DNA of 44,956 bases from an uncultured bacterium (GTDB taxonomy: Bacteria > Bacteroidota > Bacteroidia > Chitinophagales > Chitinophagaceae): assembly GCA_965652995.1 (NCBI GenBank), contig CBFGYQ010000001.1:1-44956 (forward strand). Direction: 5' to 3'. Shown one piece after another: positions 1,063 through 41,656 of this stretch. Within the stretch, counting starts at the first letter, position 1. Each line of letters starts with the position of its first letter. The position numbers were made by a program, and so were the translations under genes. The notes under the pieces are model-generated. The model did not search any database. It saw nothing but the letters and a program-made list of their open reading frames with translations, and was not told the DNA's origin.

Positions 1063-1332
1063 TTAGAGAAATGTTTTGTGTGGTTTTAATGATGGTTGCT
1101 TCATCGATAAATACGGACGACCCCATTCAATAAACTCAGGGCAGGCTGTGCATTGCAAATCGAGTTTAATAGTAGTGGGCATTTTGAATGAATAAAAAAG
1201 TCGCTCCATATCTACAAAGGAAATTGTCATGAAAATTTCAAAAAACAAATTAAGGGAAATAAATCTTGCAGAAATATTACAATAAACACAAAATATGGAT
1301 TGCTTAGCTGATTGAACCCAATGTGGAATCCC

Positions 1333-1340
1333 TATCTTTG
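1333..1340 (+). promoter_or_regulatory. Bacteroidota sigma-A -7 box (TATCTTTG, consensus TAnnTTTG) upstream of the TonB-dependent receptor gene
   Basis: Exact match to TAnnTTTG, 41 nt upstream of the ATG at 1381, inside a 318-bp divergent intergenic region. Confidence 0.4.
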
Positions 1341-1380
1341 TTTGCTTCAAAAAAACAATCTGTTTAAACTAGTCCTATTC

Positions 1381-3729: not shown

Positions 3730-3739
3730 CGAATACTGA

Positions 3740-6814: not shown

Positions 6815-6844
6815 TTGATGACAAAATACAACCATATTTATTCC

Positions 6845-13626: not shown

Positions 13627-14967
13627 TTATTGCAAAAGGATTTCAGTTGTAGTATTACTTCTCACGATTACTTTTACTGATTTTTCCATAGAAGATTGAA
13701 ATGCTGCATTCTCTTTATACCGGATCTCATAAGCTCCGGGTTTCAGCATCTTTTTTTGTAAAGCAGGATTTCCATTCACATCTATTGCATCAAACTTAGA
13801 AAACATGTCTCCATTCTGGTAATAAAGCGATGCGCGGCCTAAACTATTGGTATTTGTAATGCTCAAATAGCCCGGCTCATCTATCTGGATAATAAAATCT
13901 GTGGCAAAATCCAGATCAATATAAAAACGTGAAATAGGGTTTGTGTTTACTTCAATATGATAGCTGCCCGATTCGTAAAATTTTTCTTCTATACAAGGTT
14001 GGGTCATGACTGGTCCTGGCTCAAAATTCTTTTTTACCAATGCTGTAAATTCATCTATTGGTCGCTCAAAGTTGTCGGTATATCTAAAGCTCAATGTGCC
14101 GTTAGTTGCAATAACAGAAACTTTGTTGTTATTGTTAGCGAGTATCGTCACATTTTTCGCTCTGAAATTTCCCTTTTTACCAACAAGAACCGTATAGGTA
14201 CCCGGAGGTATATTTTGTGGGTCAGGGTTGCCATCAGGACCAACTGTTCTGTAAAAACGTTTTATTTCTTTATTGGTCTTGGAATCAAGCAATGCAACCG
14301 GTGGCGTAGTTTGATAGAATTTCCCTTTCCCATCTGTGAAAAAAACTTGAAGTGTAGTGTTTGTCGCAGGTTCTGTCTTTACACTAAAAGAAGCATCTTT
14401 GATCACTACTCTGTTAGGAGTTTTGGGCACAATAGGTTTTGCTGTGGCTGGTCTTACCGGTGCAGGTTTTGGTGTGTTTGCGGAAGCTATTATCGGTGTG
14501 GGTTCTTTTGGTGGTATTGTGATACGTTCTATGGGTCTTTTCTTTAATGATGGTGTAGACCAAAACAATCCAAAACTTCTAAGATTGGTATTTGTTTTTA
14601 GTTTAGCTATTTCTTCTTTTTTAAGTGCTACGATAGGTTCTTCTTCTCTTGCCGGTAATCCTATCTTCGCAATAGCTCTTTTGCGCATCGTAGGACGGAT
14701 GTCATTTTTTACCAGTAAACGATGCGTAGTGCGCGGTTTTAACTTTGCAATCTTTTCTTTTTTAATCGCAACAATTGGCTTTGGTGATATTGGTACTACT
14801 GGTGTGGGTTCTGCTTCTTTTGTTGGTAAGGGAATAGCAGGGATTGTACGTTCCGGTAATGCAGGTTTGGTTGTAGGTTCTTTTGCAATATCACGATTGT
14901 TATTTCTGGTGACAGGTTCTATGTTCTCTTTTTCTTTTACAGGAGTGACAACTATCGGGGGGGGCAT
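13627..14967 (-). CDS. Pro/Lys-rich linker + repeated beta-sandwich-like domains; probably the C-terminal part of the upstream VWA protein (frames differ by one C in a C8 tract)
   Basis: 446-aa ORF whose only ATG sits immediately 5' of the C8 tract. The first ~190 aa are low-complexity PxxPKP with an internal repeat (PIVAIKKEKIAKLKPRTT / PIVALKKEEIAKLKTNTN). The rest is beta-rich (GTYTVLVGKKGNFRAKNVTILANNNNKVSV..., PGAYEIRYKENAAF...). Confidence 0.6.
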   Translation of the reverse strand: MPPPIVVTPVKEKENIEPVTRNNNRDIAKEPTTKPALPERTIPAIPLPTKEAEPTPVVPISPKPIVAIKKEKIAKLKPRTTHRLLVKNDIRPTMRKRAIAKIGLPAREEEPIVALKKEEIAKLKTNTNLRSFGLFWSTPSLKKRPIERITIPPKEPTPIIASANTPKPAPVRPATAKPIVPKTPNRVVIKDASFSVKTEPATNTTLQVFFTDGKGKFYQTTPPVALLDSKTNKEIKRFYRTVGPDGNPDPQNIPPGTYTVLVGKKGNFRAKNVTILANNNNKVSVIATNGTLSFRYTDNFERPIDEFTALVKKNFEPGPVMTQPCIEEKFYESGSYHIEVNTNPISRFYIDLDFATDFIIQIDEPGYLSITNTNSLGRASLYYQNGDMFSKFDAIDVNGNPALQKKMLKPGAYEIRYKENAAFQSSMEKSVKVIVRSNTTTEILLQ

Positions 14968-15670
14968 TTTTTACCGCTGGCTCCACGGGTTTAGCTATAG
15001 GTATATTTAAAACACGTTTATAATCTTTGGCTATCTCACGAATGGTATTGTCCATCGTGTTAGGGGTGGATGCCAGCAAATAGTTGCCAAGACAGGCATA
15101 TTGGTCACGTAACGGTTGATAGTCAACAAGACTTATGATGTAAGGTTTGAATTCAATTCGCTTGTCTAATAAATTTTTCACCACATCGCATATATTTCCA
15201 TTACAGCTTTCACCACCGTCAGTTATTAATACCAGACTGTAAGCGTAATTGTAGGAATCATTGAAATCTGTTTCTGCTGCTTCCTTCAATGAATAGGCAA
15301 TTGGTGATACGCCGATGGGTTTCAATGATTCCAGGCGCAGTAGCATTTGTGTATAATTGTCCTTGCTAAAATTGACCTCTCTTTTGGTGTCAAAGCAATT
15401 CTTTTCCGGCACACTGTGCTGATGGCCATACACACGCAAAGCAAACTCTACATTAGGATTGAAATGATAAACGCTATCCATGAGCCTTGTCACAATAGAA
15501 CCTGCTGTCTGGAATCGTGTTTGGTTATTGTTCCATTTTTCGATCATGCTTGATGAACCATCCAAAAGAATAAGAATACGGTGTTGTTTATAGTCGTTTT
15601 TCTTTTGGCTAAATACTGTAGAACAAGTAACAACGAGCAATAAAGTGATAAAGGATTTCTTTAGCAACAT
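14900..15670 (-). CDS. Secreted von Willebrand factor type A (VWA) domain protein; ORF ends 18 codons after a C8 tract
   Basis: Signal peptide MLLKKSFITLLLVVTCSTVFSQ. VWA MIDAS-type start ILILLDGSSSM and ...LVLITDGGESCNG. The tail after the C8 tract (DSCHSCKRKREHRTCHQK) looks like out-of-frame read-through. Confidence 0.75.
   Translation of the reverse strand: MLLKKSFITLLLVVTCSTVFSQKKNDYKQHRILILLDGSSSMIEKWNNNQTRFQTAGSIVTRLMDSVYHFNPNVEFALRVYGHQHSVPEKNCFDTKREVNFSKDNYTQMLLRLESLKPIGVSPIAYSLKEAAETDFNDSYNYAYSLVLITDGGESCNGNICDVVKNLLDKRIEFKPYIISLVDYQPLRDQYACLGNYLLASTPNTMDNTIREIAKDYKRVLNIPIAKPVEPAVKNAPPDSCHSCKRKREHRTCHQK
14957..14964. repeat. G8/C8 homopolymer at the junction of the two overlapping minus-strand ORFs
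   Basis: The plus strand reads actatcGGGGGGGGcat. On the minus strand this is AAA AAT GCC CCC CCC GAT in the VWA frame, and A ATG CCC CCC CCG ATA in the downstream ORF frame. Confidence 0.95.
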
Positions 15671-15861: not shown

Positions 15862-16971
15862 ATGAAAAAATATTACACTAAAAACAAGCTCTCGCTTTTT
15901 GCTATAATCGTTGTTGGGGTCGCATCTATCCATTCTGCATCAGGTCCGGCAACCAATCTTGGACAAAATGTTACAGGTGCGCCTTTCGATAATGGTATTT
16001 GTACCAATTGTCATGGCGGTGGCTCTTTTTCTCCTTCTGTCTCTTTACAACTTCTTTCAGGAAGCACACCTGTTACGAGTTATGTACCCGGTGCGAGCTA
16101 TACAGTGCGAATTACGAGAAGTGCTTCAGGTAATCCTGCCGGTTTTGGATTTCAAATGACCTGTGCCACGGGCTCCGGAAATACTAATTACAACGGTTGG
16201 GGAAGTGCTTTGCCGGCAAACATTACCAATGAACCACTGGGAGGTAGGAATTACATAGAACACATTGCTATGCAACCTATTAGCACCACACAAGTAAACA
16301 TCCCTTGGACCGCCCCTACTGCAGCTACACTTGGCAATGCAAATTTTTGGATCGCGCTCAATACGGTTAATGGCAGCGGTGACCCTAGTGGAGACCATGT
16401 CACAAGCACAACAATGTCTATTCCAATAAGCCCTACACCGGTTACTTGGTTGTATTTCAGAGGAAAAGATGTAGCGGAAGGTGCTTTGCTGGAATGGGCT
16501 ACTGCTAGGGAAAAAAACAATAGTCATTTTACTATCGAAAAAAGTAACGATGGGAAAAATTTTGAGTCATTAGCAACAATTACCTCTAAAAAAATGGTTG
16601 GAAAAAATGAGTATTCATTCTTAGACAAAGATCCATTTGCGAATGGTTTTTATCGTATTGCTCAGGTTGATATAGACGGAACACCTAGCTACTATAATAC
16701 CATACAACTAGCGGTAGATAGTAAAAGGAAAACATCTTCGCATTTTGTAGAAGGAAACAAAATCATAATTCAACTACATCAAGAAAAAGAAATAATGACT
16801 GTAACCAACATTTACGACCTATCAGGAAGAAAAATAACTGGAAAAAATAGCTTGCTTGGAGATAGGGATAACACAATTACAATGGATAAACCGCAACATA
16901 GTGGGTTGTACATTCTAACTGTTCAATCAAACAATAAAATAATTTACACAGGAAAAGTCTTTGTGGATTAG
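15862..16971 (+). CDS. Secreted protein with N-terminal CXXCH-containing domain and T9SS C-terminal sorting domain
   Basis: Signal peptide MKKYYTKNKLSLFAIIVVGVASIHSA. CTNCH at codons 47-51 (nt 16000-16014). Central LEWATAREKNNSHFTIEKSNDGKNFESL... module common in Bacteroidota secreted proteins. C-terminus ...GLYILTVQSNNKIIYTGKVFVD is typical of the Por secretion tail. Confidence 0.7.
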   Translation: MKKYYTKNKLSLFAIIVVGVASIHSASGPATNLGQNVTGAPFDNGICTNCHGGGSFSPSVSLQLLSGSTPVTSYVPGASYTVRITRSASGNPAGFGFQMTCATGSGNTNYNGWGSALPANITNEPLGGRNYIEHIAMQPISTTQVNIPWTAPTAATLGNANFWIALNTVNGSGDPSGDHVTSTTMSIPISPTPVTWLYFRGKDVAEGALLEWATAREKNNSHFTIEKSNDGKNFESLATITSKKMVGKNEYSFLDKDPFANGFYRIAQVDIDGTPSYYNTIQLAVDSKRKTSSHFVEGNKIIIQLHQEKEIMTVTNIYDLSGRKITGKNSLLGDRDNTITMDKPQHSGLYILTVQSNNKIIYTGKVFVD

Positions 16972-21537: not shown

Positions 21538-24500
21538 CTATCTTTTTGCAATTCTTCTTCTAGCAAGAAAAAATCCACCAATTATTACCAATCCTCCAGC
21601 AAGCCAATAGATATATTTCGAAGAAGAAGATTCTAATTTTACGGGAGAAAGGTCACCCATAATAACCAAACCTGCCCAGTATTGTGGTGCTACCGTTCTC
21701 CCTTTTGCCGACGCGAGGTAAGACAGTTTTGCTTTTTGCAAGGCTTCATCTTTTGTCATGCCATCTTCCAAATTTTCGTAGAATGCTTCAGTGATGATGG
21801 CACTTGATTGCTCGTCCAATTTCCACAATCCGGTCATGATACTTTCGCTGCCGGCATAGTTGAATGCATGCGCCATGGAGATCATTCCTTCTCCATCTTG
21901 GTAACCGGGCTTGCCACTTTCGCATGCAGTAAGTACAGCCAGATCAGCCGTTAGGTTGCAGTCGTAAATATCATAGAGATAGACAGAGTTTTCTGCATTC
22001 GGCTTCTCATGATTTTTAGCAAATATCAATCTGGAATACTCAGGATAATCATTATTGCTTTCAGCATGTGTGCCAATATGAATGATGTGATGATTGCCAG
22101 CCTGATCACGGAAGGCTTTGGAAGTGGATGTGTTTTTACTGAATAAAATTCCACCGAATTTACTCCTGATCTTTTCCGCAAGGTTTGAGGTGAAAGGCAA
22201 TGGCAGCAATGACATATAGGTATTGTCCAACTTCAAACTGTCTTTTTTAGCAACAGCTAAATATTGTCTTTTATCCTCATCAGAAAAACCAGGTGTAAAG
22301 GCAATAAAATTGTCTTTTATCTCTGTTGGTTTCCGTTGCATATTCATAGCCAAAACACTATAGTGATAGGAGAATGCATACTTGTTCAATAAACATTTTT
22401 GAGACAATTCTGTAAACGACTGTGTAGCTACAGGACTCAGCATTTCAAAACTTACATTATACAACACTTCGTCAGGAATGACAGTTACACGTTTTGTTTT
22501 TATGTGTTGCTGTATCGGTTGCCAAAGAGAGTTGTAAAGGTCATGCGATAATGCGCAGATTTTTTTGGCATCGGTTATATCATGAAGTGCTGTGATTTTT
22601 TCTTTTAGATTTTTGTTGCCAAGCGGTACAAGCAACTGTTTTTCTTTTGAGGCAATCAATACTAGCAATTCATCTTCTGAAAATATATAACGTATGAGTG
22701 TAAGATTCTTTGGAATAATTGTGCTTAATTCTTTTAGAGAGACGTCCGTAGATGCATACCGCATTTTATAATACTCGGGATATTCTCGTTGCAGTTTTTT
22801 TTGAAAATTGTCCCAGTCTTTCACTGCTTGCAAATAGTCCATCACTTTATCGTCTGCAGTTGCTTCTCCCTTTAGTATGTTCTGTAGTTTTTGTTTTAAG
22901 GCAGTTTCCTGCTCCTGCACATGCTTAGGTACTTTAGAAAAACGTATGGCATTTTGGTGTTCCATGCGAGATCGGACTCTGGTGTAGAGTGCACTTTCAT
23001 GTACGTTCAGGATGTTGTTAATGTATTCTTTGTTATCAGAAAGCTTAAATAATTCGTAGTTTAGTTTTTTGATGAAGTCGGTGAGTTCTTTATTGTCAGC
23101 TATTAAGGAGTTTATATCATCTTGTTGTGAAAAGATGTGTTTCCGTTGCTCTAATAGCCGAGCGGCATCGTTAAGTTCGTGCAGTAATTGTTCAATAGAG
23201 GTAGAATCTTTTTTTGAAAGCATGTAATATTTCGCTTTGGTTCTAGCAAGAATAGCCTTGGGTTTCTTAATTTCTATACTTATAGAATCTAACATAGATT
23301 CTCCGGTTGCAACCATCTTAGTTATCGCTGCTAAAGAGCGATTACTATACATGAGTGCTTTATCATAGTTTTTGAGTGTCAAGTAGATATTTGCCATGTC
23401 AACCATCTGATATATTGTTATCAAGGATGCTTCACCTTGATTTTTAAGTGCATACTTTACACTTCTTTCTGAGGTTGTAATGGCTTTCTCCGTTTGTTTA
23501 TTATTTGCATAGAAATAAGAAGCTTTCGACAGAAATCTTAAGTATTCTAAACTGTATTCTTCCCCATTAATTACTTGATATAGTTTATCTGCTCGTTCGT
23601 ATTTTATACTCGCTTCATTTACTCTCTGTCGTTCTTCATTTAAGTAGGCTAAACAAGCTACGCTTTGTGCCAACCAGACACTTGGTTCTTTTTTTTCCCA
23701 AAAAGCAATTGATTTGTTTAAGCTTTTCTCGGCTTTGTCATAGTTTCGTTGATCGAAATAGACGGTTGCAAGCATTGCAAGAGACTTGTATGCTTCAGGG
23801 TTGTTGTCTCCAAATGCTCGAAGCCGACCATTGTAAGAATATTCCATTAATTCTTGAGCATGCGAATAGTTGCCTAGTTCCTGATAGCAATTACCAAGAT
23901 TTAAAATAACCATATAGTACCCTTTTGTCCCTTTTTCTTTTTCGTTCTCATTTTCTGCATACTTGCTGTAGTGTTTATAATTAGCGATAGCCTGTTCTGC
24001 TTTCTGAATGGATAAATCAACTTTGCCGAGCTCCCAATAAACATTACTAAGATTCCCCTGTATCATAGCTCTTCGTAAATACTTGTTAGCAGGGGTTTGT
24101 TTTGCCTTGGTTAAAGTTTTTTCTGCTTCCTTCATGTAGTATAAGGTACTGTCAACCTTTGATGCATTCCACATTACAATGCCCATAGTATTGTACACTG
24201 TATACAACTCAATAACATCGTCCGAACGAAATTGTCGTATAGCTTCTCTGAAATGCTTAGATGAAAGATTTTTATTGCCTATCCTCATCGCAAAAGTCCC
24301 AAGGCTATTATGCATTGTCGAAAGACGCTTTGATATAATGTCTTCCTTGCCTTTAAAATACTGTAACAACTCGATTACCAAATCATAGGCGAGATCATCT
24401 TCCCCTTTTTTACTAAAAAAATCTGCCGCATCTAAATAAATTACGGGCAAGTCTTTTGAATATGGGAACTGTGATTTTGTTTTTTCAAGTGTAGCCAGCA

Positions 24501-24753
24501 CTTCTTTTTTTGCCGTTTGAAAGCCATTTAATGCATCGCTAGTAGTGCCAAGGTATTCGATGTAATAAGCTAGAGTATCAGGGCTGCCATTTTTTAGAAG
24601 GGTTGTAATTCTTTGATTCGTTAATTTATATGCTGATTTGTAATCTTCTTTAGTCAGCAAATCTTCCAACTCACTGATCGTATTTATAATTTGTTGAGCC
24701 CTTAGGTTTACAGTAGAACAAAGAAGAAAAAAAAATAGGGTCAGTAGTTTCAT
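21538..24753 (-). CDS. Exported TPR-repeat + CHAT (caspase-family) protease-domain protein with C-terminal membrane anchor
   Basis: 1071 aa. Signal peptide MKLLTLFFFLLCSTVNLRAQQ. About 500 aa of TPR-like repeats (e.g. LGNCYQELGNYSHAQELMEYS). CHAT core HIIHIGTHAE (His codon 22066-22068) ... ADLAVLTACESG (Cys codon 21922-21924). C-terminal TM YIYWLAGGLVIIGGFFLA followed by RRRIAKR. Confidence 0.85.
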   Translation of the reverse strand: MKLLTLFFFLLCSTVNLRAQQIINTISELEDLLTKEDYKSAYKLTNQRITTLLKNGSPDTLAYYIEYLGTTSDALNGFQTAKKEVLATLEKTKSQFPYSKDLPVIYLDAADFFSKKGEDDLAYDLVIELLQYFKGKEDIISKRLSTMHNSLGTFAMRIGNKNLSSKHFREAIRQFRSDDVIELYTVYNTMGIVMWNASKVDSTLYYMKEAEKTLTKAKQTPANKYLRRAMIQGNLSNVYWELGKVDLSIQKAEQAIANYKHYSKYAENENEKEKGTKGYYMVILNLGNCYQELGNYSHAQELMEYSYNGRLRAFGDNNPEAYKSLAMLATVYFDQRNYDKAEKSLNKSIAFWEKKEPSVWLAQSVACLAYLNEERQRVNEASIKYERADKLYQVINGEEYSLEYLRFLSKASYFYANNKQTEKAITTSERSVKYALKNQGEASLITIYQMVDMANIYLTLKNYDKALMYSNRSLAAITKMVATGESMLDSISIEIKKPKAILARTKAKYYMLSKKDSTSIEQLLHELNDAARLLEQRKHIFSQQDDINSLIADNKELTDFIKKLNYELFKLSDNKEYINNILNVHESALYTRVRSRMEHQNAIRFSKVPKHVQEQETALKQKLQNILKGEATADDKVMDYLQAVKDWDNFQKKLQREYPEYYKMRYASTDVSLKELSTIIPKNLTLIRYIFSEDELLVLIASKEKQLLVPLGNKNLKEKITALHDITDAKKICALSHDLYNSLWQPIQQHIKTKRVTVIPDEVLYNVSFEMLSPVATQSFTELSQKCLLNKYAFSYHYSVLAMNMQRKPTEIKDNFIAFTPGFSDEDKRQYLAVAKKDSLKLDNTYMSLLPLPFTSNLAEKIRSKFGGILFSKNTSTSKAFRDQAGNHHIIHIGTHAESNNDYPEYSRLIFAKNHEKPNAENSVYLYDIYDCNLTADLAVLTACESGKPGYQDGEGMISMAHAFNYAGSESIMTGLWKLDEQSSAIITEAFYENLEDGMTKDEALQKAKLSYLASAKGRTVAPQYWAGLVIMGDLSPVKLESSSSKYIYWLAGGLVIIGGFFLARRRIAKR

Positions 24754-25496
24754 TATTCTTTCAATTTACGAAGCAATGCTTCTTTATCGGGGTGCTCCGT
24801 TTTTTGTAATAAATTGATGGCTTCTTGTTTATTTCCTTTATTTAATAATATTAACGCTTTGTACCATTGCGCATCTTGAAGAAAGACGGAGTTGGTGCTG
24901 CCTATTACTTTGTCAAAAAAAGCAAGAGATGATTCAGGATTGTTATCTGCTAGATGGGCGGATGCAATGAAGTAATTTAATGTGTCGTTATTTGCATTGT
25001 CTTTCAACAGTCCTTCCCAAGTTTTAAGTGCCTTGTCATAGTCGCCCATTTTATAATCTACCATCGCCTTGTCAAATTCATAGTTGTCAGAAACGCCCAT
25101 TAAGGTTGGCAATCCGGGATCTGCTTGGTAATAGTTTGCGAACAGTTGCTCATTAACTGTTTTTTTAAAAAATAGTAGCCAACTCAATGTACCCACAACA
25201 AGTATTGTAGATGCGGCTACTGCTAGCCTTTTCCCCCAATTTATTTCAATGCTTTTCTGTGTTTTGCCATTCGCTTCTACATTTAGTGATGAATGAAAGT
25301 TATTCAACTTTGCACTAAGTGTTGATTCTTGAATACCAATAGACATGAAACGTATTTGATCAACTTTATCACGCCAAGTCTCATCATCAGCTAACTTTTT
25401 TTCAAAAGCTGCCAACTCGCTTTCGGGGAGCTGTTTGTTCAGGTATTTGTCTATCAGTTCCAATTCTTCTTGGGTTATATTAAAATCGTTGTTCAC
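24753..25496 (-). CDS. Single-pass membrane protein with periplasmic TPR domain; anti-sigma-factor-like by position and topology
   Basis: 247 aa. A ~90-aa N-terminal helical region (MNNDFNITQEELELIDKYLNKQLPESELAAFEKKLADD...), TM LAVAASTILVVGTLSWLLFF, then TPR-like units (YDKALKTWEGLL..., AQWYKALILLNKGNKQEAINLL). Starts 18 nt after the sigma gene stop. Its TAA shares one base with the CHAT gene ATG (TAATG). Confidence 0.6.
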   Translation of the reverse strand: MNNDFNITQEELELIDKYLNKQLPESELAAFEKKLADDETWRDKVDQIRFMSIGIQESTLSAKLNNFHSSLNVEANGKTQKSIEINWGKRLAVAASTILVVGTLSWLLFFKKTVNEQLFANYYQADPGLPTLMGVSDNYEFDKAMVDYKMGDYDKALKTWEGLLKDNANNDTLNYFIASAHLADNNPESSLAFFDKVIGSTNSVFLQDAQWYKALILLNKGNKQEAINLLQKTEHPDKEALLRKLKE

Positions 25497-25514
25497 CTTT
25501 TTATCGTTGGATTT

Positions 25515-26066
25515 TTATTTAGTCATCATGGCACGTAAACGTTCCATGCATCTGTATTTATTATTCTTGGCTGTTGCTTCAGTCCAGTTTAGCGCATCGG
25601 CAATTTCTTTTAGCGATTGCTTTTTGTAGTAGAATCTTGTCAGCAATTCGCGACAGTTTTCGCCTAGATCACTAAACTTTTCTTTTATCAATTTCAGTCT
25701 TTCTACATCATTATCGTTCAGCTCTTCAAAAGTCATCGCTTGCTGATGCTTTTCTTCTAATGTTGTAGTTTTTTTAACAATTGTTGAACGTAAATGGTCC
25801 ATCCATTTGTTTTTTGCAATCTGAAAAAGATAGGCATTTAAGGCTCCATTGCCGGTAGGGGTGAATTTGTCAAGCTGTATATTTCTCCAAAGTGCTATAA
25901 AAGCTTCCTGATAAATATCTTTTGCTTCGTCTATAGTGCCACTATTTTGTAATATGAACTTTTCTACTTGTGGGTAATTGGCTTTATACAATTGCTGCAA
26001 CGCCCGTTCATCGTTCGCCTTTATAGCTTCAATCTGTTGATAAGGAGTAAAAGCTTCGGTTGCCAT
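25515..26066 (-). CDS. ECF-type RNA polymerase sigma-70 family factor
   Basis: 183 aa. Region 2 (...EAKDIYQEAFIALWRNI...YLFQIAKNKWMD) and region 4 HTH (CRELLTRFYYKKQSLKEIADALNWTEATAKNNKYRCMERLRAMM). Confidence 0.85.
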   Translation of the reverse strand: MATEAFTPYQQIEAIKANDERALQQLYKANYPQVEKFILQNSGTIDEAKDIYQEAFIALWRNIQLDKFTPTGNGALNAYLFQIAKNKWMDHLRSTIVKKTTTLEEKHQQAMTFEELNDNDVERLKLIKEKFSDLGENCRELLTRFYYKKQSLKEIADALNWTEATAKNNKYRCMERLRAMMTK

Positions 26067-26218
26067 AGGTCATTTTAACAAGGTCAAAAGATACATATTT
26101 TATTTTTGTGAAGCCCTTTTCGTTAACTCAACAACTTTTTATTTACAAATCCAATTTGAGCGGTTATGACCGTGAGAGATAAGTTTCATTTAAGCCCAAA
26201 ATCTTTGTATTTTATCAT

Positions 26219-31268: not shown

Positions 31269-34200
31269 ATGCGGAAAGCCCTGAAAATAACGCTGTGGAT
31301 ACTTGGTAGCTTATTGTTCATTATTCTCATTGTGGTCATTTTATTAATGACACCGCCGGGGAAGGAATTTGTGCGGAAGCAAGCGGAAAATTTCCTCCGT
31401 AAAAAGCTAAAAACCACCGTCAATATTGGCCGGATAGATTACAGCTTACCGAAATTCATTGAGCTTAATGAAATCTTATTTCTTGACCAAGCACAAGACA
31501 CGTTACTAGCCGGACACAAGATAAAGGTGGATATTGCAATGCTGAAGCTTCTCAATAGCAATGTGGACGTGCAGGAAATTCATCTCGAAGGAATAAACGC
31601 ACATATCTATCGAAATATTCCCGACACCAATTTCAATTTTCAATACATCATTGACGCATTTGTGACAGCACCAACGGGAGAAACTACTGCAAAAGACACT
31701 AGTGGCGGAAGCACGTTAACGATGAGCGTTGATAAACTAAAACTGGATAATATTCGTTTTCGTTTTGATGATTATACTGGTGGTAGTCGCTTTGCTGCGA
31801 ACGTGAATGAGTTGATGCTCACAATGAATAAGATCGATCCTGAAAAACTGATTTTCAATATTGAAAAACTGCATGTAAATGGATTGGATGGAGCGTTTGT
31901 GATGGATACATCTTACTTACCACCAACACCTGACGAACCTCCCGGACCTATCACCTTTCAGCTTGCTGCAAAAGAATTGGATTTGAAGAATGTTCATTAC
32001 AACCAGCAAAGTGTTTTGGATAAATTTTTCATGGATATCAATGTGAGTAGATTATACGGACATCCTCATAAAATTGATCTTCCCAACCAAACCATTGAAA
32101 TAAAAGACTTATTGCTTGATCCTTCGCAAGTAAAAATATCAATGGAGAACAAAGTGGCGAATGCGGCCGTTGAAGTGATAGATACTTTGGTGGAAAGCGA
32201 TCCATTGCCATATATGAAGTGGAGAGTTTTGGGAGATAAATTGAACATCAAGAATCTTGATTTTAAGTTTGATAATCTTAGCCTTCCAAAACAAAGATCA
32301 GGAATGGATTATGCGCATTTAGATGCGAAAGGATTGACGCTTGACGCAGAAAAAATTTATTACACCACCGATACGATCGCAGCTTCTATCAAGCATTTGG
32401 CATTAAAAGAACAATCCGGTTTTGATCTGCGAGAATTCAAAACAGATTTTGTGTATCATCCGCAAGGTGGTTATTTGAAAGACCTTTATCTGCAAACCGA
32501 TAATACCATCTTGCAAGACTATGCTTGGGTACAATATCCCTCACTGGAGGCTCTGACGAAGAACATGAACCTGATGCAGTTGAAGATCAATCTTCAAAAA
32601 AGTATCGTTGGTGTAAAAGATATTTTGCTGTTCGCTCCACAACTAACACAGGAAGAATTTTTCAGAAAGAATAGAAACGGTATGGTGCGGTTGGATGCAA
32701 AATTAGATGGAAGATTAGATGCTGTAAATATTCAACAGTTTGCTATGTCTGGTTTGGGAAGTACTGAAGTTATATTGTCTGGAAAGGTTTATGGAATGCC
32801 CGATGCTAACAAGTTGCGTTATGATCTAAACATAGCAAAGCTGTCTTCTTCACGCAGAGATATAGAAGCCTTACTGCCACCTTCTGCAACGGCACAAATA
32901 AGTTTACCCGAACGCTTTGCCGCAACGGGAACCATTTCAGGAACGACTTTAGCTTATCGCCCAAATTTATTTATTACATCTTCTGATGGTAATGCAAGAC
33001 TGAATGGCTTGGTATCAATGGAAGGTGGGACGGGAAATGAACGATATGATATTGATATTAGTACTAAGTCGCTAAACCTTGGAAAGATCTTAAAGAACCC
33101 ACAATTAGGTTTTATCTCAGCAGACATCAAAGCAAAGGGAACGAGCTTCGATATTAATAAAATGAATGCCGTTGCTAGCGGAACTATTCATGCTGCAACA
33201 TTTAATGGTTACACTTACAATCGTATAAATTTCAAAGGAGATATTGCAAAGAAAATTGCCAACTTCAAGGTAGCATCTAAAGACAGCAACATGCATTTGG
33301 ATTTGATGACGCATGTAAATCTCAATGGAAAATATCCGGCGATAAGAGCTTATGGAGATATTGACAGCATCAACCTTTATCAATTAAAATTCTATTCTAA
33401 AGAAATAAAAATTCGTGGTAAACTGGATGCAGATATACAAGAATTAAATCCTGATTATCCTGTTGCAACGGTTGTTCTGCGCGAACCTTCTGTAGGAACA
33501 GGTGGCGAAAATTATTATCTCGATAGCATTTACATTGTTTCAAAACCAACACCAGATAGCGGCAATAATATTTTTGTGAATGCACAAGCGTTGGTGGCAA
33601 ATGTTTGGGGACATACGCCGCTTACCAAAGCTGGAGCTGTTATTCAAGAACAGATAGATAAGCACTACACATTCGATGATAGCACGTACCAAGCACAGAA
33701 AGGAATGGTGAAAGTAGATACGTTGGGCAATTATGATTTGAATGTAAAAGCACGTGTCAATCGTCATCCGGTGTTGTATGCGTTGGTGCCGGATTTGAAA
33801 CGAGTGGATAGCATTGATATTACAGGAAATGTTACCCCGAATAATTTGGTCTTGAATGTAGATGCGCCAAAAATTGTTTACAGTACGATGGATATCAATG
33901 GTGCGAAACTGCGCGTAAATGGAGATAATGCCAACCTCACTTATTTGGCTTCGTTAGATTTACTTAATCAAGGAACGATGCAATTTTGGAACCCTACCAT
34001 CGCCGGAAATATTCAACAAAATGCAGTCACTTCAAAAGTTTCTATAACTGATCAAGATAGTACGGAAAGGTTTAGATTAAGTGCATTGTTACGACGTAAT
34101 GGTGATGATCAAATATTGCAATTGCAAAAAGGTTTGCTGTTGAATTATGAAGAATGGCAAGTGGCGGATGGGAACAGAATTGTCTTAGCACAACCTGGAA

Positions 34201-36359
34201 TGTACATTCAAGATTTTGCTATCAACAAAGGAAGCGAGAGCATTCGCATCAACAGTGAAACGCCAACTTACAACGCACCCCTTACAGCAGATATCACCAA
34301 CTTTTTATTGTCAAATGTGACAGGCATTATTAGCAAAGACACGTTGTTTGCAAATGGCTCTTTAGCAGGGAATGTAAAAGTTTCGCAACTGCAACCGAAC
34401 CTCATGTTTACTTCAGCATTGAACGTTGCCAACCTTTCTTTTATGGGCGATACGGTTGGTAACGTAAAAATCAATGCGAACAGTATTGATGCGAACACTG
34501 TAAATGCCAATGTAGGTCTCACAGGTTTTGGAAATGACGTGCGCGTAGCCGGTAAATATTTTATAGAGCCGGTGAACGGAGATCAGTTTGATATGAATTT
34601 GGTCTTGAATCCTTTGAATGTAAAATCAATTGAGGGCGTTACCAACTACATGATAAAAAACAGTTCCGGTACCATCACGGGAGAATTAAAAGTGCGCGGA
34701 ACACCTACAGAACCTGAATTGAATGGCGAATTAAAAACCAATCAACTCACTACCAATATTGCCATGCTCAATCAGCCTTTTACAATGCCGGATGAGATCA
34801 TCACATTTACAAGGGGTGGCGTACGGTTCAATAATTTTGAAATATTTGATAGTGCAAGAAACAAGTTAGAGGTAGATGGACGTATCATCACTCGTGATTA
34901 TCAAAATATGAACCTTGCGATGCGAATTAATGCGCGCAATTGGCAAGCTATGAATTCCACCGCTAAAGACAATAAAGACTTTCACGGCAAACTTTTCCTA
35001 ACTACCAATATGGATATATACGGTCCGATGACGGCACCGAATGTAGATGGTAGATTGAATATCTTGAAAGGAACAGACATGACTGTCGTGATACCTGAAC
35101 AGCAAGTGGCAATACAAGATCATGAAGGCATTGTGAAGTTTGTGAACATGAAGGATACAGGTCGATATCAATTGACAACGCAAGTAAAAGATACTTTTAA
35201 AAAGCTAGCTACTGTGCCAAAAGGTTCTGAAATCAATTTGAATATTAATCTTAATGAAGAAGCCAATTTCAGCGTGATCATTGATGAAAGCACAGGAGAC
35301 TTTTTGAGAGTGCGTGGTGAAGCGGATTTGAATACGACAGTCGCGCCGGATGGCACGCTTGGTTTGTCCGGTGTTTTAGAAATTAAGGATGGACAATATC
35401 AATTGAACTATAACCTTATCAAACGCCTTTTCCGAATACAACCCGGAAGCACTTTGGCTTTTTCGGGAGACCCAACGCAAGCGCAAGCTAATGTTACTGC
35501 TATCTATGAAGCTATTGTGCCGCCTTATGATTTAGTATCGCGTCAAGTAGATGAACAAGAACTCGTGTATTACAAACAGAGACTTCCTTTTGAAGTACAC
35601 ATGAAACTGACAGGTGAATTGATGAAGCCTGAAATTAGTTTTGATATTCAACTGCCTGAAGAGAAAGCGTATGCTGTTGGTTCTATCGTAAGTGATTTGG
35701 TGCAAGCACGTTTGGCAGAACTTCGTAACAGTCCATCGGACCTTAACAAACAAGTTTTTGCATTGATCATTCTTAATCGTTTTGTGTCGGAAAATCCTTT
35801 TGAAAGTGGTGCAGGTAGAGACGCGGAAAGTATTGCAAGGCAAAGTGCTAGCCGTTTTATTTCAGAACAACTCAACAAGTTTGCCGGCAATTTGGTACAA
35901 GGTTTAGACCTTACGATGGACTTAGCAACATCTGATGATTATACAACAGGACAAAGAAGAAATCGCACCGATCTCAATCTTGCAGCTTCTAAAAAATTAT
36001 TGAACGATAGATTGACACTTACGGTCGGCAACAGCTTTCAGTTAGAAGGTCCGCAATCTAATTCTACGCAAGGTACTTCGTTCATTCCCGGAAACCTTGC
36101 AGCAGACTATGATCTTTCGAAAGACAGAAGATATAGAGTGCGTGTGTACAGAAGAAATGAAGATATGGGTATTGTAGATGGTTTTGTGGTGAAGACAGGA
36201 ACGAGTTTTATTATGACATTGGAATACAATAATATTAGAAGAGCATTTATGAGCCGTAAGAAGAAAGAACAATTGCGTGAGCAAAGAAGAAAGCAACGTC
36301 AGGAAAATAGAAAGATAGAAGAACAAAAGAATGCGGAGATGGAAAAGGTGGAAGGGTAG
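31269..36359 (+). CDS. tamB: Translocation and assembly module subunit TamB (AsmA-like, C-terminal DUF490)
   Basis: 1696 aa. N-terminal signal-anchor LKITLWILGSLLFIILIVVILLM and a very long beta-rich repetitive body. It is followed by an Omp85-family gene. It carries an unusual 36-aa K/R/E-rich tail. Confidence 0.85.
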   Translation: MRKALKITLWILGSLLFIILIVVILLMTPPGKEFVRKQAENFLRKKLKTTVNIGRIDYSLPKFIELNEILFLDQAQDTLLAGHKIKVDIAMLKLLNSNVDVQEIHLEGINAHIYRNIPDTNFNFQYIIDAFVTAPTGETTAKDTSGGSTLTMSVDKLKLDNIRFRFDDYTGGSRFAANVNELMLTMNKIDPEKLIFNIEKLHVNGLDGAFVMDTSYLPPTPDEPPGPITFQLAAKELDLKNVHYNQQSVLDKFFMDINVSRLYGHPHKIDLPNQTIEIKDLLLDPSQVKISMENKVANAAVEVIDTLVESDPLPYMKWRVLGDKLNIKNLDFKFDNLSLPKQRSGMDYAHLDAKGLTLDAEKIYYTTDTIAASIKHLALKEQSGFDLREFKTDFVYHPQGGYLKDLYLQTDNTILQDYAWVQYPSLEALTKNMNLMQLKINLQKSIVGVKDILLFAPQLTQEEFFRKNRNGMVRLDAKLDGRLDAVNIQQFAMSGLGSTEVILSGKVYGMPDANKLRYDLNIAKLSSSRRDIEALLPPSATAQISLPERFAATGTISGTTLAYRPNLFITSSDGNARLNGLVSMEGGTGNERYDIDISTKSLNLGKILKNPQLGFISADIKAKGTSFDINKMNAVASGTIHAATFNGYTYNRINFKGDIAKKIANFKVASKDSNMHLDLMTHVNLNGKYPAIRAYGDIDSINLYQLKFYSKEIKIRGKLDADIQELNPDYPVATVVLREPSVGTGGENYYLDSIYIVSKPTPDSGNNIFVNAQALVANVWGHTPLTKAGAVIQEQIDKHYTFDDSTYQAQKGMVKVDTLGNYDLNVKARVNRHPVLYALVPDLKRVDSIDITGNVTPNNLVLNVDAPKIVYSTMDINGAKLRVNGDNANLTYLASLDLLNQGTMQFWNPTIAGNIQQNAVTSKVSITDQDSTERFRLSALLRRNGDDQILQLQKGLLLNYEEWQVADGNRIVLAQPGMYIQDFAINKGSESIRINSETPTYNAPLTADITNFLLSNVTGIISKDTLFANGSLAGNVKVSQLQPNLMFTSALNVANLSFMGDTVGNVKINANSIDANTVNANVGLTGFGNDVRVAGKYFIEPVNGDQFDMNLVLNPLNVKSIEGVTNYMIKNSSGTITGELKVRGTPTEPELNGELKTNQLTTNIAMLNQPFTMPDEIITFTRGGVRFNNFEIFDSARNKLEVDGRIITRDYQNMNLAMRINARNWQAMNSTAKDNKDFHGKLFLTTNMDIYGPMTAPNVDGRLNILKGTDMTVVIPEQQVAIQDHEGIVKFVNMKDTGRYQLTTQVKDTFKKLATVPKGSEINLNINLNEEANFSVIIDESTGDFLRVRGEADLNTTVAPDGTLGLSGVLEIKDGQYQLNYNLIKRLFRIQPGSTLAFSGDPTQAQANVTAIYEAIVPPYDLVSRQVDEQELVYYKQRLPFEVHMKLTGELMKPEISFDIQLPEEKAYAVGSIVSDLVQARLAELRNSPSDLNKQVFALIILNRFVSENPFESGAGRDAESIARQSASRFISEQLNKFAGNLVQGLDLTMDLATSDDYTTGQRRNRTDLNLAASKKLLNDRLTLTVGNSFQLEGPQSNSTQGTSFIPGNLAADYDLSKDRRYRVRVYRRNEDMGIVDGFVVKTGTSFIMTLEYNNIRRAFMSRKKKEQLREQRRKQRQENRKIEEQKNAEMEKVEG

Positions 36360-36370
36360 AAGGGGTTTCG

Positions 36371-36504
36371 CACAGAGCGCACAAAGAAAAAAGAGGCGCA
36401 AAGAACTCTGTGAACTCAAAAACTCTGTGACCTCTGTGTGAAACATGCCGAATACAAAAAAGAACGTAGAAGAGTGCAACGCCCGCCTGATCGGACGGGC
36501 AGGC
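36371..36504. repeat. GC-rich REP-like intergenic element with CACAGAG/CTCTGTG motifs and short GC stems
   Basis: CACAGAG at 36371-36377. CTCTGTG at 36406-36412, 36423-36429 and 36432-36438. The 10-nt direct repeat aactctgtga occurs at 36404-36413 and 36421-36430. GC stems gcccg/cgggc (36481-36485 / 36496-36500) or gcctg/caggc (36484-36488 / 36500-36504). Confidence 0.6.
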
Positions 36505-36558
36505 AACGATGCTCAATAGTAGCAACCAAGATGACTAAATAAAGAATAACAAACAGAA

Positions 36559-38847
36559 TTGAAAAACAAACTAACTCTTTTATACATTCTCACTTTCACA
36601 TTGCTTGCGTCATCATGCAGTGTCACGCGTAATTTAAAACCCGGAGAGACTTTGTATACAGGCTCTTCTGTAAGCGTGAAGAGTGAAGGATTATCGTCAA
36701 AAGAAGCGAAAGTGTTGAAGAATGATTTGGACGGAGCAATACGACCCCGACCCAATTCCAGCTTCTTAGGAATAAGGTTTAAGTTAATGATTTATAACCT
36801 TGGTGGTAAAAGTGAGAAAGATAAAGGTGTGAGAAAGTTTATTCGAAATTTGGGTGAAGCTCCGGTGTTAGGCAGCAGTTTCGATGCTGTGAAGAATGAA
36901 AAAATCTTAGAGAATATTCTTTACAACAAAGGATTTTTTTATCCTGACTTAAAATCGGAAACGGTTACAGATACAGGAAAGAAAACCACACGCGGAAAAT
37001 TCGAGATCGTAAGCGGTCCACAATATATCATCAAAGAAGTTTTCTTTCCCGAGCCGACAAATCTTATCACGCGGCATATTGATAGCATCAAAGACAAGTC
37101 TTTATTAAAACCTGATCTACCTTACAACTTAGACTTGATAAAAGGAGAACGAGATCGTATATCGCGCGCGCTTACTGAGAAAGGGTATTATTATTTCAAG
37201 TCAGATTATTTGCTAGATGTGGTAGATACTTCTATCGGTGACATGAAAGCGAATATGTACATGACGTTGAAGGAAGAAGAAATGCCGACGGAAGCTTCTT
37301 ATGTTTACAAGATAAACGATGTGCTAATTTATCCTAACTACCGCATCAATGCACGTAGGGAAGATACCAGTAAGAAAGGTGCGGTGTTTTATAATGGTTA
37401 TAATATCGTTGACAGAAGAAAGACTTTCAAGCTCCATGTTTTTCGTCAGGCTATGCAATTTCAACCCGGAGATATTTACAACAGAACCGAACAAAATTTA
37501 TCACTCAATCGTTTGGTGAATTTGGGAACATTCAAGCTTGTGAAAAATCGTTTTGAAAGTATTGACAATCCTGAAAATCCCTTGCTAAATGTATTCTACT
37601 ATCTCACTCCATATCCTAAAAAATCATTGCGTTTTGAGTTGGGTGTTGAAAGTCAAAACGATAGTCGTCTTGGCACACAATCAAGCATAAGCTGGCGCAA
37701 TAAAAATACGTTTGGTGGTGCAGAGTTGCTGACTGTGAGCCTTCGTGGTGGTTATGAAGCACAGTCGGGTGGTAGTAGTGGTGTGAAGCGTCCTCCGGCT
37801 TTGGAAGGTGGTGCGGAAGTGAGCATCAGCGTTCCACGTTTTTGGTTGCCGTTTTTTGATATTCTTCCCAGAGGAATGTACGTGCCTCGCTCCATTGCGA
37901 AGTTGGGTTATGATGCGACCATTCGTCAGGATCTATACCTAATTCATTCTTTCAATACTTCATTGGGCTATGTATGGAAGGAGGATATTCGTAAAGAGCA
38001 TCGTTTGTTTCCCATCAATATCAACTATGTAAGAACAGATACTTTAGCGAGCCAAAACAATGCATTAAACATTAACTATAGCAACTTGATCTTTAACGGA
38101 CTTATCATCGGACCTACTTATGAATACACGTTCAATAGTCAGGCTACGGGTATAAGAAGACACAATTTTTATTTTAATGGATTGATTGATTTTTCTAACA
38201 ATATTCTTGGTTTAGCACAAGGAGCGAATGACCCCCAAAATCAGAAGGAGATAATCGGAACACCCTATGCGCAATACATGAAATATCAGGTGGATGGTCG
38301 CTACTATATGAACTATCGCGTGCATAAGAATAATATGTGGGCGACAAGATTGTTGATAGGCTATGGCGTGCCTTATGGCAACTCCGATCAGCTACCCAAC
38401 ATCAAACAATTCTTTAGTGGTGGTGCAAGTAGCTTGCGAGGTTTTCGTTCGCGCTTAGTGGGCCCGGGTACATACAATGAACAATATCTTAATCCTGGAC
38501 AAACACCACAATTTGTCGAGACATTAGGTGATATCAAATTAGAGTTCAGTACAGAGTTGCGCACGCATATTTATCAGTTTATCAATACAGCCATATTTGT
38601 AGATGCAGGAAATATTTGGACACGCAAAGATGATCCGCGTTTTCCGGGTGGTCAGTTCACCAACAAATTTATGCAGCAGTTGGCAGTAGATGCCGGCATT
38701 GGTTTGCGATTAGATTTTGATATACTTATCCTTCGTTTAGATTTTGCATCTCCACTTCGCCGTCCTTGGTTGCCAAAAGGAAAAGAGTGGACATGGGATA
38801 GTGGCAGCAGACCTGTTTTCAATTTGGCGATCGGGTATCCGTTTTAG
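36559..38847 (+). CDS. Omp85/BamA-family outer-membrane protein, lipoprotein TamL-type partner of TamB
   Basis: 762 aa. A TTG start gives the lipoprotein signal MKNKLTLLYILTFTLLASSC. Has a POTRA-like region and a surface-antigen (D15) barrel ...FFSGGASSLRGFRSRLVGPG... ending ...FNLAIGYPF. Confidence 0.85.
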   Translation: MKNKLTLLYILTFTLLASSCSVTRNLKPGETLYTGSSVSVKSEGLSSKEAKVLKNDLDGAIRPRPNSSFLGIRFKLMIYNLGGKSEKDKGVRKFIRNLGEAPVLGSSFDAVKNEKILENILYNKGFFYPDLKSETVTDTGKKTTRGKFEIVSGPQYIIKEVFFPEPTNLITRHIDSIKDKSLLKPDLPYNLDLIKGERDRISRALTEKGYYYFKSDYLLDVVDTSIGDMKANMYMTLKEEEMPTEASYVYKINDVLIYPNYRINARREDTSKKGAVFYNGYNIVDRRKTFKLHVFRQAMQFQPGDIYNRTEQNLSLNRLVNLGTFKLVKNRFESIDNPENPLLNVFYYLTPYPKKSLRFELGVESQNDSRLGTQSSISWRNKNTFGGAELLTVSLRGGYEAQSGGSSGVKRPPALEGGAEVSISVPRFWLPFFDILPRGMYVPRSIAKLGYDATIRQDLYLIHSFNTSLGYVWKEDIRKEHRLFPININYVRTDTLASQNNALNINYSNLIFNGLIIGPTYEYTFNSQATGIRRHNFYFNGLIDFSNNILGLAQGANDPQNQKEIIGTPYAQYMKYQVDGRYYMNYRVHKNNMWATRLLIGYGVPYGNSDQLPNIKQFFSGGASSLRGFRSRLVGPGTYNEQYLNPGQTPQFVETLGDIKLEFSTELRTHIYQFINTAIFVDAGNIWTRKDDPRFPGGQFTNKFMQQLAVDAGIGLRLDFDILILRLDFASPLRRPWLPKGKEWTWDSGSRPVFNLAIGYPF

Positions 38848-41629: not shown

Positions 41630-41656
41630 AAAAGCACTCATTGATTGAGTGCTTTT
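41630..41656. terminator. Hairpin terminator shared by the convergent yceI-family and second CHAT genes
   Basis: Perfect 11-bp inverted repeat aaaagcactca / tgagtgctttt with the 5-nt loop ttgat and a T-run after it. The last six codons and the stop of the minus-strand gene lie inside the hairpin. Confidence 0.65.

Follow-up and report, generated by a model that had tools for sequence, protein, structure and literature searches.

The way in which sigma factors of the extracytoplasmic function (ECF) type are released is, to our knowledge, understood for just a few of the numerous ECF groups, and hardly anything of it is understood for the Bacteroidota. The classical route is the regulated intramembrane proteolysis (RIP) of ECF anti-sigma factors, as with RseA, DegS and RseP of Escherichia coli and RsiW, PrsW and RasP of Bacillus subtilis. 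In the type III CRISPR system CalpL-CalpT-CalpS, a signal-activated protease cleaves an anti-sigma factor and frees an ECF sigma factor. Here, we describe a three-gene operon found on a stretch of 44,956 nucleotides (hereafter, the window) from an uncultured bacterium of the Chitinophagaceae (assembly GCA_965652995.1, contig CBFGYQ010000001.1). The three genes encode, in order, an ECF sigma factor, a probable anti-sigma-like protein with tetratricopeptide repeats (TPRs), and an exported TPR-CHAT protein, that is, a TPR array followed by a CHAT domain of the caspase family.

A periplasmic TPR-CHAT module has already been joined to an ECF anti-sigma factor in the literature. The 991-residue anti-sigma factor DdvA of Myxococcus xanthus consists of a zinc-binding (CHCC) cytoplasmic domain, a transmembrane (TM) segment, and a dimeric periplasmic TPR-CHAT part (PMC11506125; PDB 8ROT and 8RW5; 2024). 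Its dyad is proposed to cut the protein's own linker in trans before RseP acts, and DdvA controls a defence island of CBASS (cyclic-oligonucleotide-based antiphage signalling system) and CRISPR genes; DdvA-like fused proteins have been reported only from Myxococcota and one Comamonas (PMC11506125). In the cytoplasm, the TPR-CHAT protease Csx29 of the type III-E CRISPR Craspase cleaves Csx30, thereby controlling an ECF-like sigma factor (PMC10028731; PDB 8EEY). Finally, gene neighbourhoods in which EACC2-caspases accompany an ECF sigma factor together with a DUF1822 TPR protein have led to a proposal of protease-triggered transcription (Kaur, Iyer, Burroughs, Aravind 2021; PMC8195603). The main text of the ECF reclassification makes no mention of CHAT (Casas-Pastor 2021), and a full-text literature search found no description of a sigma/TPR/CHAT trio from Bacteroidota, although its supplementary group descriptions may already list the trio as the conserved context of an ECF group. 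That is, a periplasmic TPR-CHAT module working with an ECF anti-sigma factor is published, and it is the split, trans-acting version on two polypeptides that was not found described. The novelty implied by a first account of the locus, made from the sequence alone and called here the original prediction, shrinks to that extent, since DdvA and its sigma factor DdvS are already known as a TPR-CHAT-coupled anti-sigma system. Our best explanation of the locus, favoured tentatively and at a little under an even chance, is a three-component ECF switch native to the Bacteroidota that resembles a DdvA split into two polypeptides.

The operon spans positions 21538-26066 of the minus strand, to which the coordinates of all its features refer. 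Gene 1 (25515-26066; 183 residues) is followed by gene 2 (24753-25496; 247 residues, with a GTG start) and by gene 3 (21538-24753; 1071 residues). Genes 1 and 2 lie close together, separated by an 18-nt spacer and without overlap, a point on which the earlier account is corrected; genes 2 and 3 overlap by one base within TAATG. The three minus-strand open reading frames (ORFs), with their coordinates, gap and overlap, are otherwise as originally predicted, and Pfam searches for Sigma70_r2/r4, TPR, and CHAT (PF12770) domains all returned matches that agree with the identities first given to the genes.

Gene 1 is assigned from its ORF and from Pfam and NCBIfam matches to the ECF (group IV) sigma factors. 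Only the sigma-2 and sigma-4 regions are present, as follows: Sigma70_r2 matches residues 26-94 (E = 3.9e-12) and Sigma70_r4 residues 133-179 (E = 4e-6). The protein scores 81.9 bits against the family TIGR02937, for which the cut-off is 42.9, and its sequence matches in the PDB are SigL, SigW, and RpoE-type ECF factors. None of the narrower NCBIfam sigma subfamilies, whether Bacteroidetes-specific or species-specific, reaches its cut-off for gene 1 (for TIGR02985, 81.8 vs 126.4). Its orthologues in the related loci are 40-72% identical.

To what extent the three genes travel together was examined from the gene 3 side. Taking one genome for each GTDB species, a scan gave 420 stretches with relatives of gene 3, and the locus counts reported here are for the best 80 of these 420. 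All 80 hold full-length orthologues of gene 3 with 35-54% identity, and they come from Chitinophagaceae, Flavobacteriaceae, Cyclobacteriaceae, Sphingobacteriaceae, Prolixibacteraceae, Lentimicrobiaceae, and one metagenome-assembled genome labelled Chlorobiota. The sigma gene, gene 2, and the CHAT gene are adjacent on one strand in 64/80 loci. A further four have the same adjacency cut by a contig end, and in four loci of Cyclobacteriaceae the CHAT gene comes first, with the sigma gene and gene 2 one or two genes downstream. In five loci, the CHAT gene is an orphan, having no sigma gene and gene 2 within 6 kb, and three loci are uninformative. Hence, the sigma gene and gene 2 are linked to the CHAT gene in 72 of the 77 informative loci. 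Starting instead from gene 2, three of three homologues (36-41% identity) were found in the trio. The closest metagenomic relative, locus L001 (64% identity), carries the trio followed by genes for an FHA-trypsin protein, a PP2C phosphatase, and a Ser/Thr kinase (L001, 9486-13862).

We also asked whether TPR-CHAT proteins of Bacteroidota are generally associated with a sigma/anti-sigma pair, and this was rejected: three distant TPR-CHAT paralogues, with at most 26% identity to gene 3, have the pair upstream in zero of three cases. It follows that the linkage is specific to the family of gene 3 orthologues. We consider it quite likely that genes 1, 2, and 3 encode the parts of a single signalling module. 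Those observations that the original prediction had named as counting against it, and that can be made by computation, all turned out otherwise: the trio is conserved as a unit, its orthologues keep the catalytic dyad of gene 3, and the ectodomains of genes 2 and 3 are predicted to share the periplasm (see below).

Gene 3 is a TPR-CHAT protein of the caspase family with an intact dyad, and proteolytic activity is predicted from its sequence. An AlphaFold2 model (predicted local distance difference test score, pLDDT, 89.5; predicted template-modelling score, pTM, 0.82) shows an all-helical superhelix of TPR and TPR-like repeats with about 30 helices, extending over residues ~26-665 (22759-24678), to which Pfam assigns three TPR_12 matches, TPR_MalT, and others. 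The CHAT domain, residues 736-1034 (21652-22548), has an alpha/beta fold in the model and matches PF12770 with E = 1.1e-42 over profile positions 4-289 of 289. The predicted catalytic residues are His896 in GTHAE (22066-22068) and Cys944 in TACESG (21922-21924), at the very positions originally given for the dyad. Alignments A1 and A4 show no variation at either residue, and 81/81 orthologues keep both, which indicates that catalysis is under selection. When the model was compared with the PDB by Foldseek, the top matches were human separase (9hn0_B, E = 7e-15), the Craspase protease Csx29 (8eey_B, E = 8.5e-15), and DdvA (8rw5, E = 5.9e-14; 8rot_A, E = 5.5e-13). These matches identify gene 3 as a bona fide TPR-CHAT protein. 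A profile of the gene 3 family had a single match in the PDB, again DdvA (8rot_B), which is marginal (E = 0.097) and covers the dyad region. Searches of the PDB with the single sequences of genes 2 and 3 returned just generic TPR proteins, such as kinesin light chain and designed TPRs, and were uninformative.

The ends of gene 3 suggest where the protein resides. Residues 1-20 (24694-24753) form an N-terminal signal sequence, MKLLTLFFFLLCSTVNLRA, with a predicted cleavage site directly before the residues QQ; the hydrophobic N-terminus, a helix in the model, is conserved in position among the orthologues. At the other end, residues 1044-1071 (21541-21624) comprise a C-terminal TM helix, modelled as a helix from 1044 to 1070, and the basic cytoplasmic tail RRRIAKR. 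Both ends had been noted in the original prediction. The C-terminal TM segment passes the Kyte-Doolittle threshold in 73/81 orthologues, the window protein being below it, and nearly all orthologues have from 2 to 7 Lys or Arg residues in the tail. A sortase- or exosortase-type sorting signal was considered for this C-terminus and rejected, since the alignment of gene 3 orthologues has no conserved sorting motif in front of the helix; for the same reason the helix is treated as a plain anchor. Taken together, the signal sequence, the C-terminal TM helix, and the basic tail predict that the whole TPR-CHAT part resides in the periplasm, with a tether in the inner membrane.

The window encodes a second TPR-CHAT protein, at 41638-44913 on the minus strand. 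Built along the lines of gene 3, it has a TPR array, a CHAT domain (PF12770, 1.3e-37), and a C-terminal TM helix with a KRQK tail; it keeps the His (GTHA) and Cys (GGCATG) residues, and its C-terminal half shares only 26% identity with gene 3. The N-terminus resembles a lipoprotein signal (MLLCIFVFTIGC), and the region upstream of its gene is beyond the end of the window. Nearby, at 38884-40545, is a gene for a TPR-containing histidine kinase of the HisKA_3 type.

Gene 2 is probably anti-sigma-like, judging from its position, its topology, its three-helix N-terminus, and a set of near-threshold profile matches. It stands directly downstream of the sigma gene in at least 64 loci, with gaps that are usually from -8 to +20 nt. 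The GTG start is backed by the orthologue N-termini, which read MNNxxNI(T/S)xEELE. In the AlphaFold2 model, built on 51 homologues (pLDDT 88), residues 1-86 (25239-25496) form a cytoplasmic domain of three helices (residues 9-19, 25-37, and 39-73), which is a candidate zinc-less class I anti-sigma domain. A TM helix, residues 87-110 (25167-25238), covers the hydrophobic segment RLAVAASTILVVGTLSWLLFF. Beyond the membrane, a short loop leads to a periplasmic TPR domain of about three repeats at residues 139-246 (24759-25082); the Pfam matches TPR_16 (residues 142-199), TPR_2, and TPR_6 are confined to residues 140-235. The positively charged residues before the TM helix (WGKR) and the TPR ectodomain after it predict an N-in/C-out orientation. 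The ectodomain of gene 2 and the TPR-CHAT part of gene 3 would thus occupy the same compartment, the periplasm, each with its own inner-membrane tether.

The N-terminal domain deserves a closer look. The zf-HC2 domain of zinc-binding anti-sigma factors follows the pattern LxxYLDGELxxxExxxxExHLxxCxxC. The corresponding stretch of gene 2, LIDKYLNKQLPESELAAFEKKLADDETWRDKV, is similar to this pattern but lacks the zinc ligands. As the original prediction had it, the HxxxCxxC motif is absent, and there are no Cys or His residues at the equivalent positions (FEKKLADDETWRDKV); if gene 2 is an anti-sigma factor at all, its anti-sigma domain is of the non-zinc kind. Among 26 orthologue N-termini, four give a zf-HC2 match, the best of which (E = 3.2e-4; 21.2 bits, the gathering threshold being 22.2) pairs residues 14-35 with profile positions 5-26. 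The window's gene 2 itself has zero matches to zf-HC2, and it matches the NCBIfam model NF052375, named 'antisigma', weakly (E = 0.011, residues 16-106). With the full model, Foldseek gave three-repeat TPR modules as the top matches (template-modelling score to the target ~0.8); the search is dominated by the TPR domain, which masks the N-terminal one. The best PDB match of a profile of the N-terminus was TorD (E = 0.011), which is probably spurious.

It might be argued that the three genes are merely co-transcribed, gene 2 being just another TPR protein of the periplasm rather than an anti-sigma factor, and that there is no regulatory proteolysis. The public databases would agree with this, in that the homologues of gene 2 are named 'TPR protein', 'hypothetical', or similar and none is named 'anti-sigma', and so would the curated anti-sigma models, all of which score gene 2 below threshold. 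We nevertheless consider it very unlikely indeed. The order and adjacency of the three genes are kept across several orders of Bacteroidota while the flanking genes vary from locus to locus, gene 2 has exactly the topology, size, and position of ECF anti-sigma factors, and near-threshold matches to zf-HC2 recur in its family.

The conservation of gene 2 peaks outside its TPR and cytoplasmic domains, in the juxtamembrane periplasmic loop at residues 122-134 (25095-25133), with the consensus YYxPDPGLPTxM(G/S) and, in the window, the sequence YYQADPGLPTLMG. In alignment A2, D126 is kept in 50/51 sequences, and G128, L129, and M133 in 51/51 each. This exposed loop, non-helical in the model, follows the TM helix and precedes the TPR domain; it lies 12-24 residues beyond the membrane. 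We suggest that it is a candidate for a recognition, docking, or site-1 cleavage site.

The proposed mechanism is as follows. The three-helix cytoplasmic domain of gene 2 would bind the sigma factor and hold it at the inner membrane, and on the periplasmic face the TPR superhelix of gene 3 would serve as a likely sensor or docking surface. An envelope signal would activate the CHAT protease, which would then act in trans and cut gene 2 on its periplasmic side, the most plausible place being the conserved loop or its vicinity. The truncated gene 2 protein would become a substrate for a site-2 protease and for cytoplasmic proteases, and the sigma factor would be released. In most relatives, it would then transcribe, from TGATGAC(A/C)TTTT-N-CGAT(G/A)TA promoters, its own operon and a set of exported and mostly lipoprotein-like proteins. 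The place of the cut, the participation of a site-2 protease, and the nature of the signal are conjectural parts of this scheme; no site-2 protease gene is present within the window. That the CHAT domain makes the site-1 cut in gene 2 is suggested by genetic linkage, the shared compartment, and analogy only, and the suggestion is tentative, at a little under an even chance. The fully specified version, with a dedicated, trans-acting CHAT site-1 protease, a cut at the invariant PDPGL loop, and a lipoprotein regulon read through TGATGAC-N16-CGATGTA, is more doubtful.

The promoters of the trio and of its neighbours provide a second line of evidence. The sequence, and comparison of orthologous loci, show a sigma-A-type -7-like box, TATCTTTTG (TATCTTTT(G)), at 26085-26093, where it precedes the ATG of the sigma gene by about 19 nt. 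Identical or similar boxes (TATCTTTTG, TATATTTC) are found at the equivalent place in most orthologous loci: TAnnTTT occurs in the zone upstream of the sigma gene in 58/71 loci vs ~23 in shuffles. By eye, an upstream TTTG element can also be made out in some Flavobacteriaceae loci, ahead of the box by about 19 nt. The conserved box suggests a basal, sigma-A-driven expression of the operon. The original prediction had seen no sigma-A box at the sigma gene and had argued from this for autoregulation. The exact form TAnnTTTG is indeed missing, but a box of that type is present and conserved, and the argument drawn from its absence is lost.

What does speak for autoregulation is a promoter of the ECF type. 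Of 74 orthologous loci, 33 have the motif TGATGAC(A/C)TTTT-N-CGAT(G/A)TA upstream of the sigma gene, at a distance of 80-200 nt. Across the related loci (L005-L084), which amount to 1.08 Mb, the pattern TGATGA[CT]-N15/16-CGAT occurs 120 times, compared with 1.4 expected and a maximum of 4 in Markov simulations, and motif positions outside the search pattern are likewise conserved. Being enriched, conserved, and placed upstream of the sigma gene, the motif indicates that the sigma family is active. The same motif also precedes the gene right after the CHAT gene and genes right upstream of the trio in related loci; examples of the motif, in front of the sigma gene or of such neighbours, are at 9254 and 10608 of L047, 4512 and 9218 of L055, and 205 and 4977 of L067. 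The neighbouring genes so marked encode exported, mostly lipoprotein-like families without Pfam domains, of ~384 residues (17 loci), ~840 residues, and ~256 residues, together with a beta-lactamase-fold hydrolase and a small outer-membrane beta-barrel protein. We regard them, on the strength of their promoter motifs, as a candidate regulon of the sigma family. In the window itself, none of these exported-protein families is encoded. In L001, a match to the ECF motif is found at 12093, just upstream of the Ser/Thr kinase gene.

The candidate regulon also bears on an alternative role for the CHAT protein, that of an output. Here, another site-1 protease of the DegS, Prc, or C-terminal-processing (CTP) type would trigger the release of the sigma factor under envelope stress, and the CHAT protein, as a periplasmic effector, would process or degrade other envelope proteins, such as the lipoproteins of the regulon. 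ECF-type motifs stand in front of several exported-protein families beside the trio, and a long TPR array could bind many substrates. Moreover, the orphan CHAT gene of locus L050 is directly preceded by the motif; together with the five orphan CHAT loci, this keeps an output role alive. Against it, the linkage of CHAT to the sigma gene and gene 2 is tight and family-specific (72/77), the putative substrate genes vary by lineage and are absent from the window, the inner-membrane tether would keep the protease beside gene 2 rather than free in the periplasm, and in DdvA the anti-sigma and CHAT parts are physically joined. On balance, we consider an output role unlikely.

Two weak candidate ECF-type promoters lie within the operon of the window, and they are the two best same-strand matches to the position weight matrix (PWM) of the motif (25531-25497 and 25741-25707). 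The first, TGATGACTAAA-N-CGATAAA at 25497-25531, is at the sigma stop and gene 2 start; it has the best PWM score in the window (13.1) and is the window's sole strict match to the regular expression. This site may be a chance match, since it is absent at the equivalent position in close relatives. The second, cGATGACTTTT-N-CGATAAT at 25707-25741, is inside the sigma gene, in the linker between sigma-2 and sigma-4 and ~220 nt before the sigma stop, with a PWM score of 11.3 that ranks third of ~90,000 window positions. An equivalent internal site is found in L001, L005, L006, L009, L012, L049, L051, L052, L060, L066, L069, L075, and L081. These loci fall into two separate clades, that of the window and one of Flavobacteriaceae, in which the site encodes different amino acids, and both clades are without the upstream motif. 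An internal ECF promoter may, then, drive gene 2 and gene 3 only, as a negative feedback, and we offer this as a lead that involves two phylogenetic events. Another PWM match, at 14694 on the plus strand, was dismissed as chance because it lies antisense inside a gene.

Such internal promoters bring to mind a different role for the CHAT protein. RseB is known to shield RseA, and gene 3 could likewise act as a co-anti-sigma factor or sensor that docks on the TPR domain or loop of gene 2 and protects it without cutting it. A signal would cause autoproteolysis or dissociation of the CHAT protein, gene 2 would be exposed to generic proteases, and the sigma factor would re-synthesise genes 2 and 3 as feedback. 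Two TPR modules tethered to the same membrane face would be suited to docking, and the candidate promoters inside or after the sigma gene, found in two clades that include the window, would drive exactly these two genes. Self-cleavage is common among caspase-family proteases. For DdvA, trans-autocleavage has been proposed (PMC11506125). On the other hand, autocleavage sites in gene 3 are not in evidence, the best-conserved non-catalytic element is a loop of gene 2 and not one of gene 3, and the internal sites of the window score low (11-13, vs 20-26 in the Flavobacteriaceae clade). We find the shielding role quite unlikely.

Returning to the three-component switch with CHAT as the site-1 protease, several observations weigh against it and account for our caution. 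Neither the window nor its nearest relatives have the ECF-type motif upstream of the sigma gene. Five of the 77 informative loci have an orphan CHAT gene, and the motif directly in front of the L050 orphan fits CHAT as a regulon output equally well as it fits CHAT as an input. The anti-sigma assignment of gene 2 draws on sequence similarity that is below threshold: no curated anti-sigma model reaches its threshold with gene 2, and the profile of the N-terminus retrieved zero anti-sigma domain structures from the PDB. By Foldseek, the likeness of gene 3 to DdvA does not measurably exceed its likeness to separase or Csx29. The precedent is itself qualified, as site-1 cleavage of DdvA is hypothetical and mutants of its dyad have no phenotype in the absence of the signal (PMC11506125). 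Clustered at 50% identity, the gene 2 family comes to at least 685 clusters with E <= 1e-30, and nearly all of the 150 best representatives are ~240-255 residues long. None of CHAT size, as a fused gene 2-CHAT protein would be, was found in the profile search among these best 150 of 685. Since such fusions are not seen among them, fusion-type support comes solely from a distant phylum.

The G+C content of the window is ~38%, and the closest relatives belong to the Chitinophagaceae (Niabella and Flavipsychrobacter, for example). The trio is flanked by housekeeping genes, ychF downstream and a divergent atpG upstream, with an alaS-like gene among the neighbours. PADLOC gave zero matches on the window, so the trio does not figure among the catalogued defence systems; none of the window ORFs that were scanned is a cas gene or encodes Cas7-11 or Csx30/Csx31. 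Elsewhere in the window, several other groups of genes are recognisable. Positions 31269-38847 on the plus strand encode a TamB-like protein of 1696 residues (PF04357) and then an Omp85/POTRA protein of 762 residues, a TAM-type pair for outer-membrane assembly. At 1312-8452, also on the plus strand, a TonB-dependent-receptor-like protein (CarboxypepD_reg plus Plug), an all-TPR protein of 1024 residues, and a 545-residue protein with no Pfam match apparently form one operon. On the minus strand, at 13627-15670, a proline-rich protein of 446 residues without a Pfam match is encoded downstream of, and overlapping, a VWA-domain protein (14900-15670). Positions 15862-16971 encode a 369-residue protein without a Pfam match.

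What the trio offers is a way of addressing an idea that has so far only been proposed, for DdvA: a caspase-family protease as a periplasmic trigger. In DdvA, the idea could not be tested, because protease and substrate are one protein and the signal is unidentified. The trio separates the protease from its putative substrate and makes the hypothesis of a caspase-type site-1 protease directly testable. Trans-cleavage, the mapping of the site, and the definition of the regulon are all open to experiment, and the candidate promoter motif is usable as a reporter. The family is large, with those 685 or more gene 2 clusters and the 420 CHAT matches in species-representative genomes, and it has cultivable carriers in Flavobacterium, Winogradskyella, Dokdonia, Algoriphagus, Terrimonas, and Niabella. 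If correct, the three-component switch would provide the first case of a caspase-like site-1 protease that works outside the cytoplasm and is separable from its substrate, would give a function to a gene annotated just as 'TPR protein', and would extend the recurring link between TPR-CHAT proteins and ECF sigma factors from the cytoplasm, where Craspase works, to the envelope.

How the trio compares with the systems introduced above can be set out as follows. With the EACC2-caspase neighbourhoods, it shares the recurrent genomic grouping of a caspase-family protease, a sigma factor of the ECF type, and a TPR protein. The families are different ones, as Pfam detects neither the EACC2 domain nor DUF1822 in the trio, and the EACC2 systems are conflict systems with variable sensor domains for which an exported or C-terminally anchored build is not described. 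CalpL-CalpT-CalpS differs in that its protease is a cytoplasmic Lon-SAVED protein activated by cyclic oligoadenylate. Craspase, the parallel drawn in the original prediction, shares with the trio the TPR-CHAT fold and an output in the proteolysis of a sigma-inhibiting partner. However, Craspase is cytoplasmic and activated by RNA through Cas7-11, whereas gene 3 is exported and anchored, and its candidate substrate is a transmembrane anti-sigma factor. Classical RIP has in common with the proposed switch a single-pass anti-sigma factor, a cytoplasmic sigma-binding domain, an extracytoplasmic juxtamembrane site-1 cut, and an autoregulated sigma regulon. In contrast, the classical site-1 proteases are serine or metalloproteases encoded elsewhere, and that of the trio would be a caspase-family cysteine protease encoded in the same operon.

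The closest of these systems is DdvA-DdvS. The differences are several. DdvA is one polypeptide, with auto- or trans-cleavage within a dimer, whereas the trio has separate genes for 247 and 1071 residues; gene 2 has a small TPR domain of its own, and gene 3 has its own signal peptide and C-terminal TM helix. The anti-sigma domain of DdvA binds zinc, and gene 2 is without zinc ligands. DdvA governs a defence island, and the trio sits among housekeeping genes and is spread across the Bacteroidota. The sequence similarity between DdvA and gene 3 is marginal (E = 0.097). Lacking the fusion, the zinc ligands, and the defence island, the trio stands outside the DdvA family. The likeness is in the build and in the proposed logic. 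In both, an ECF sigma factor would be under the control of a single-pass anti-sigma factor, a periplasmic, membrane-tethered TPR-CHAT module carries a conserved His/Cys dyad, and the CHAT domain is proposed to act as the site-1 protease ahead of RseP.

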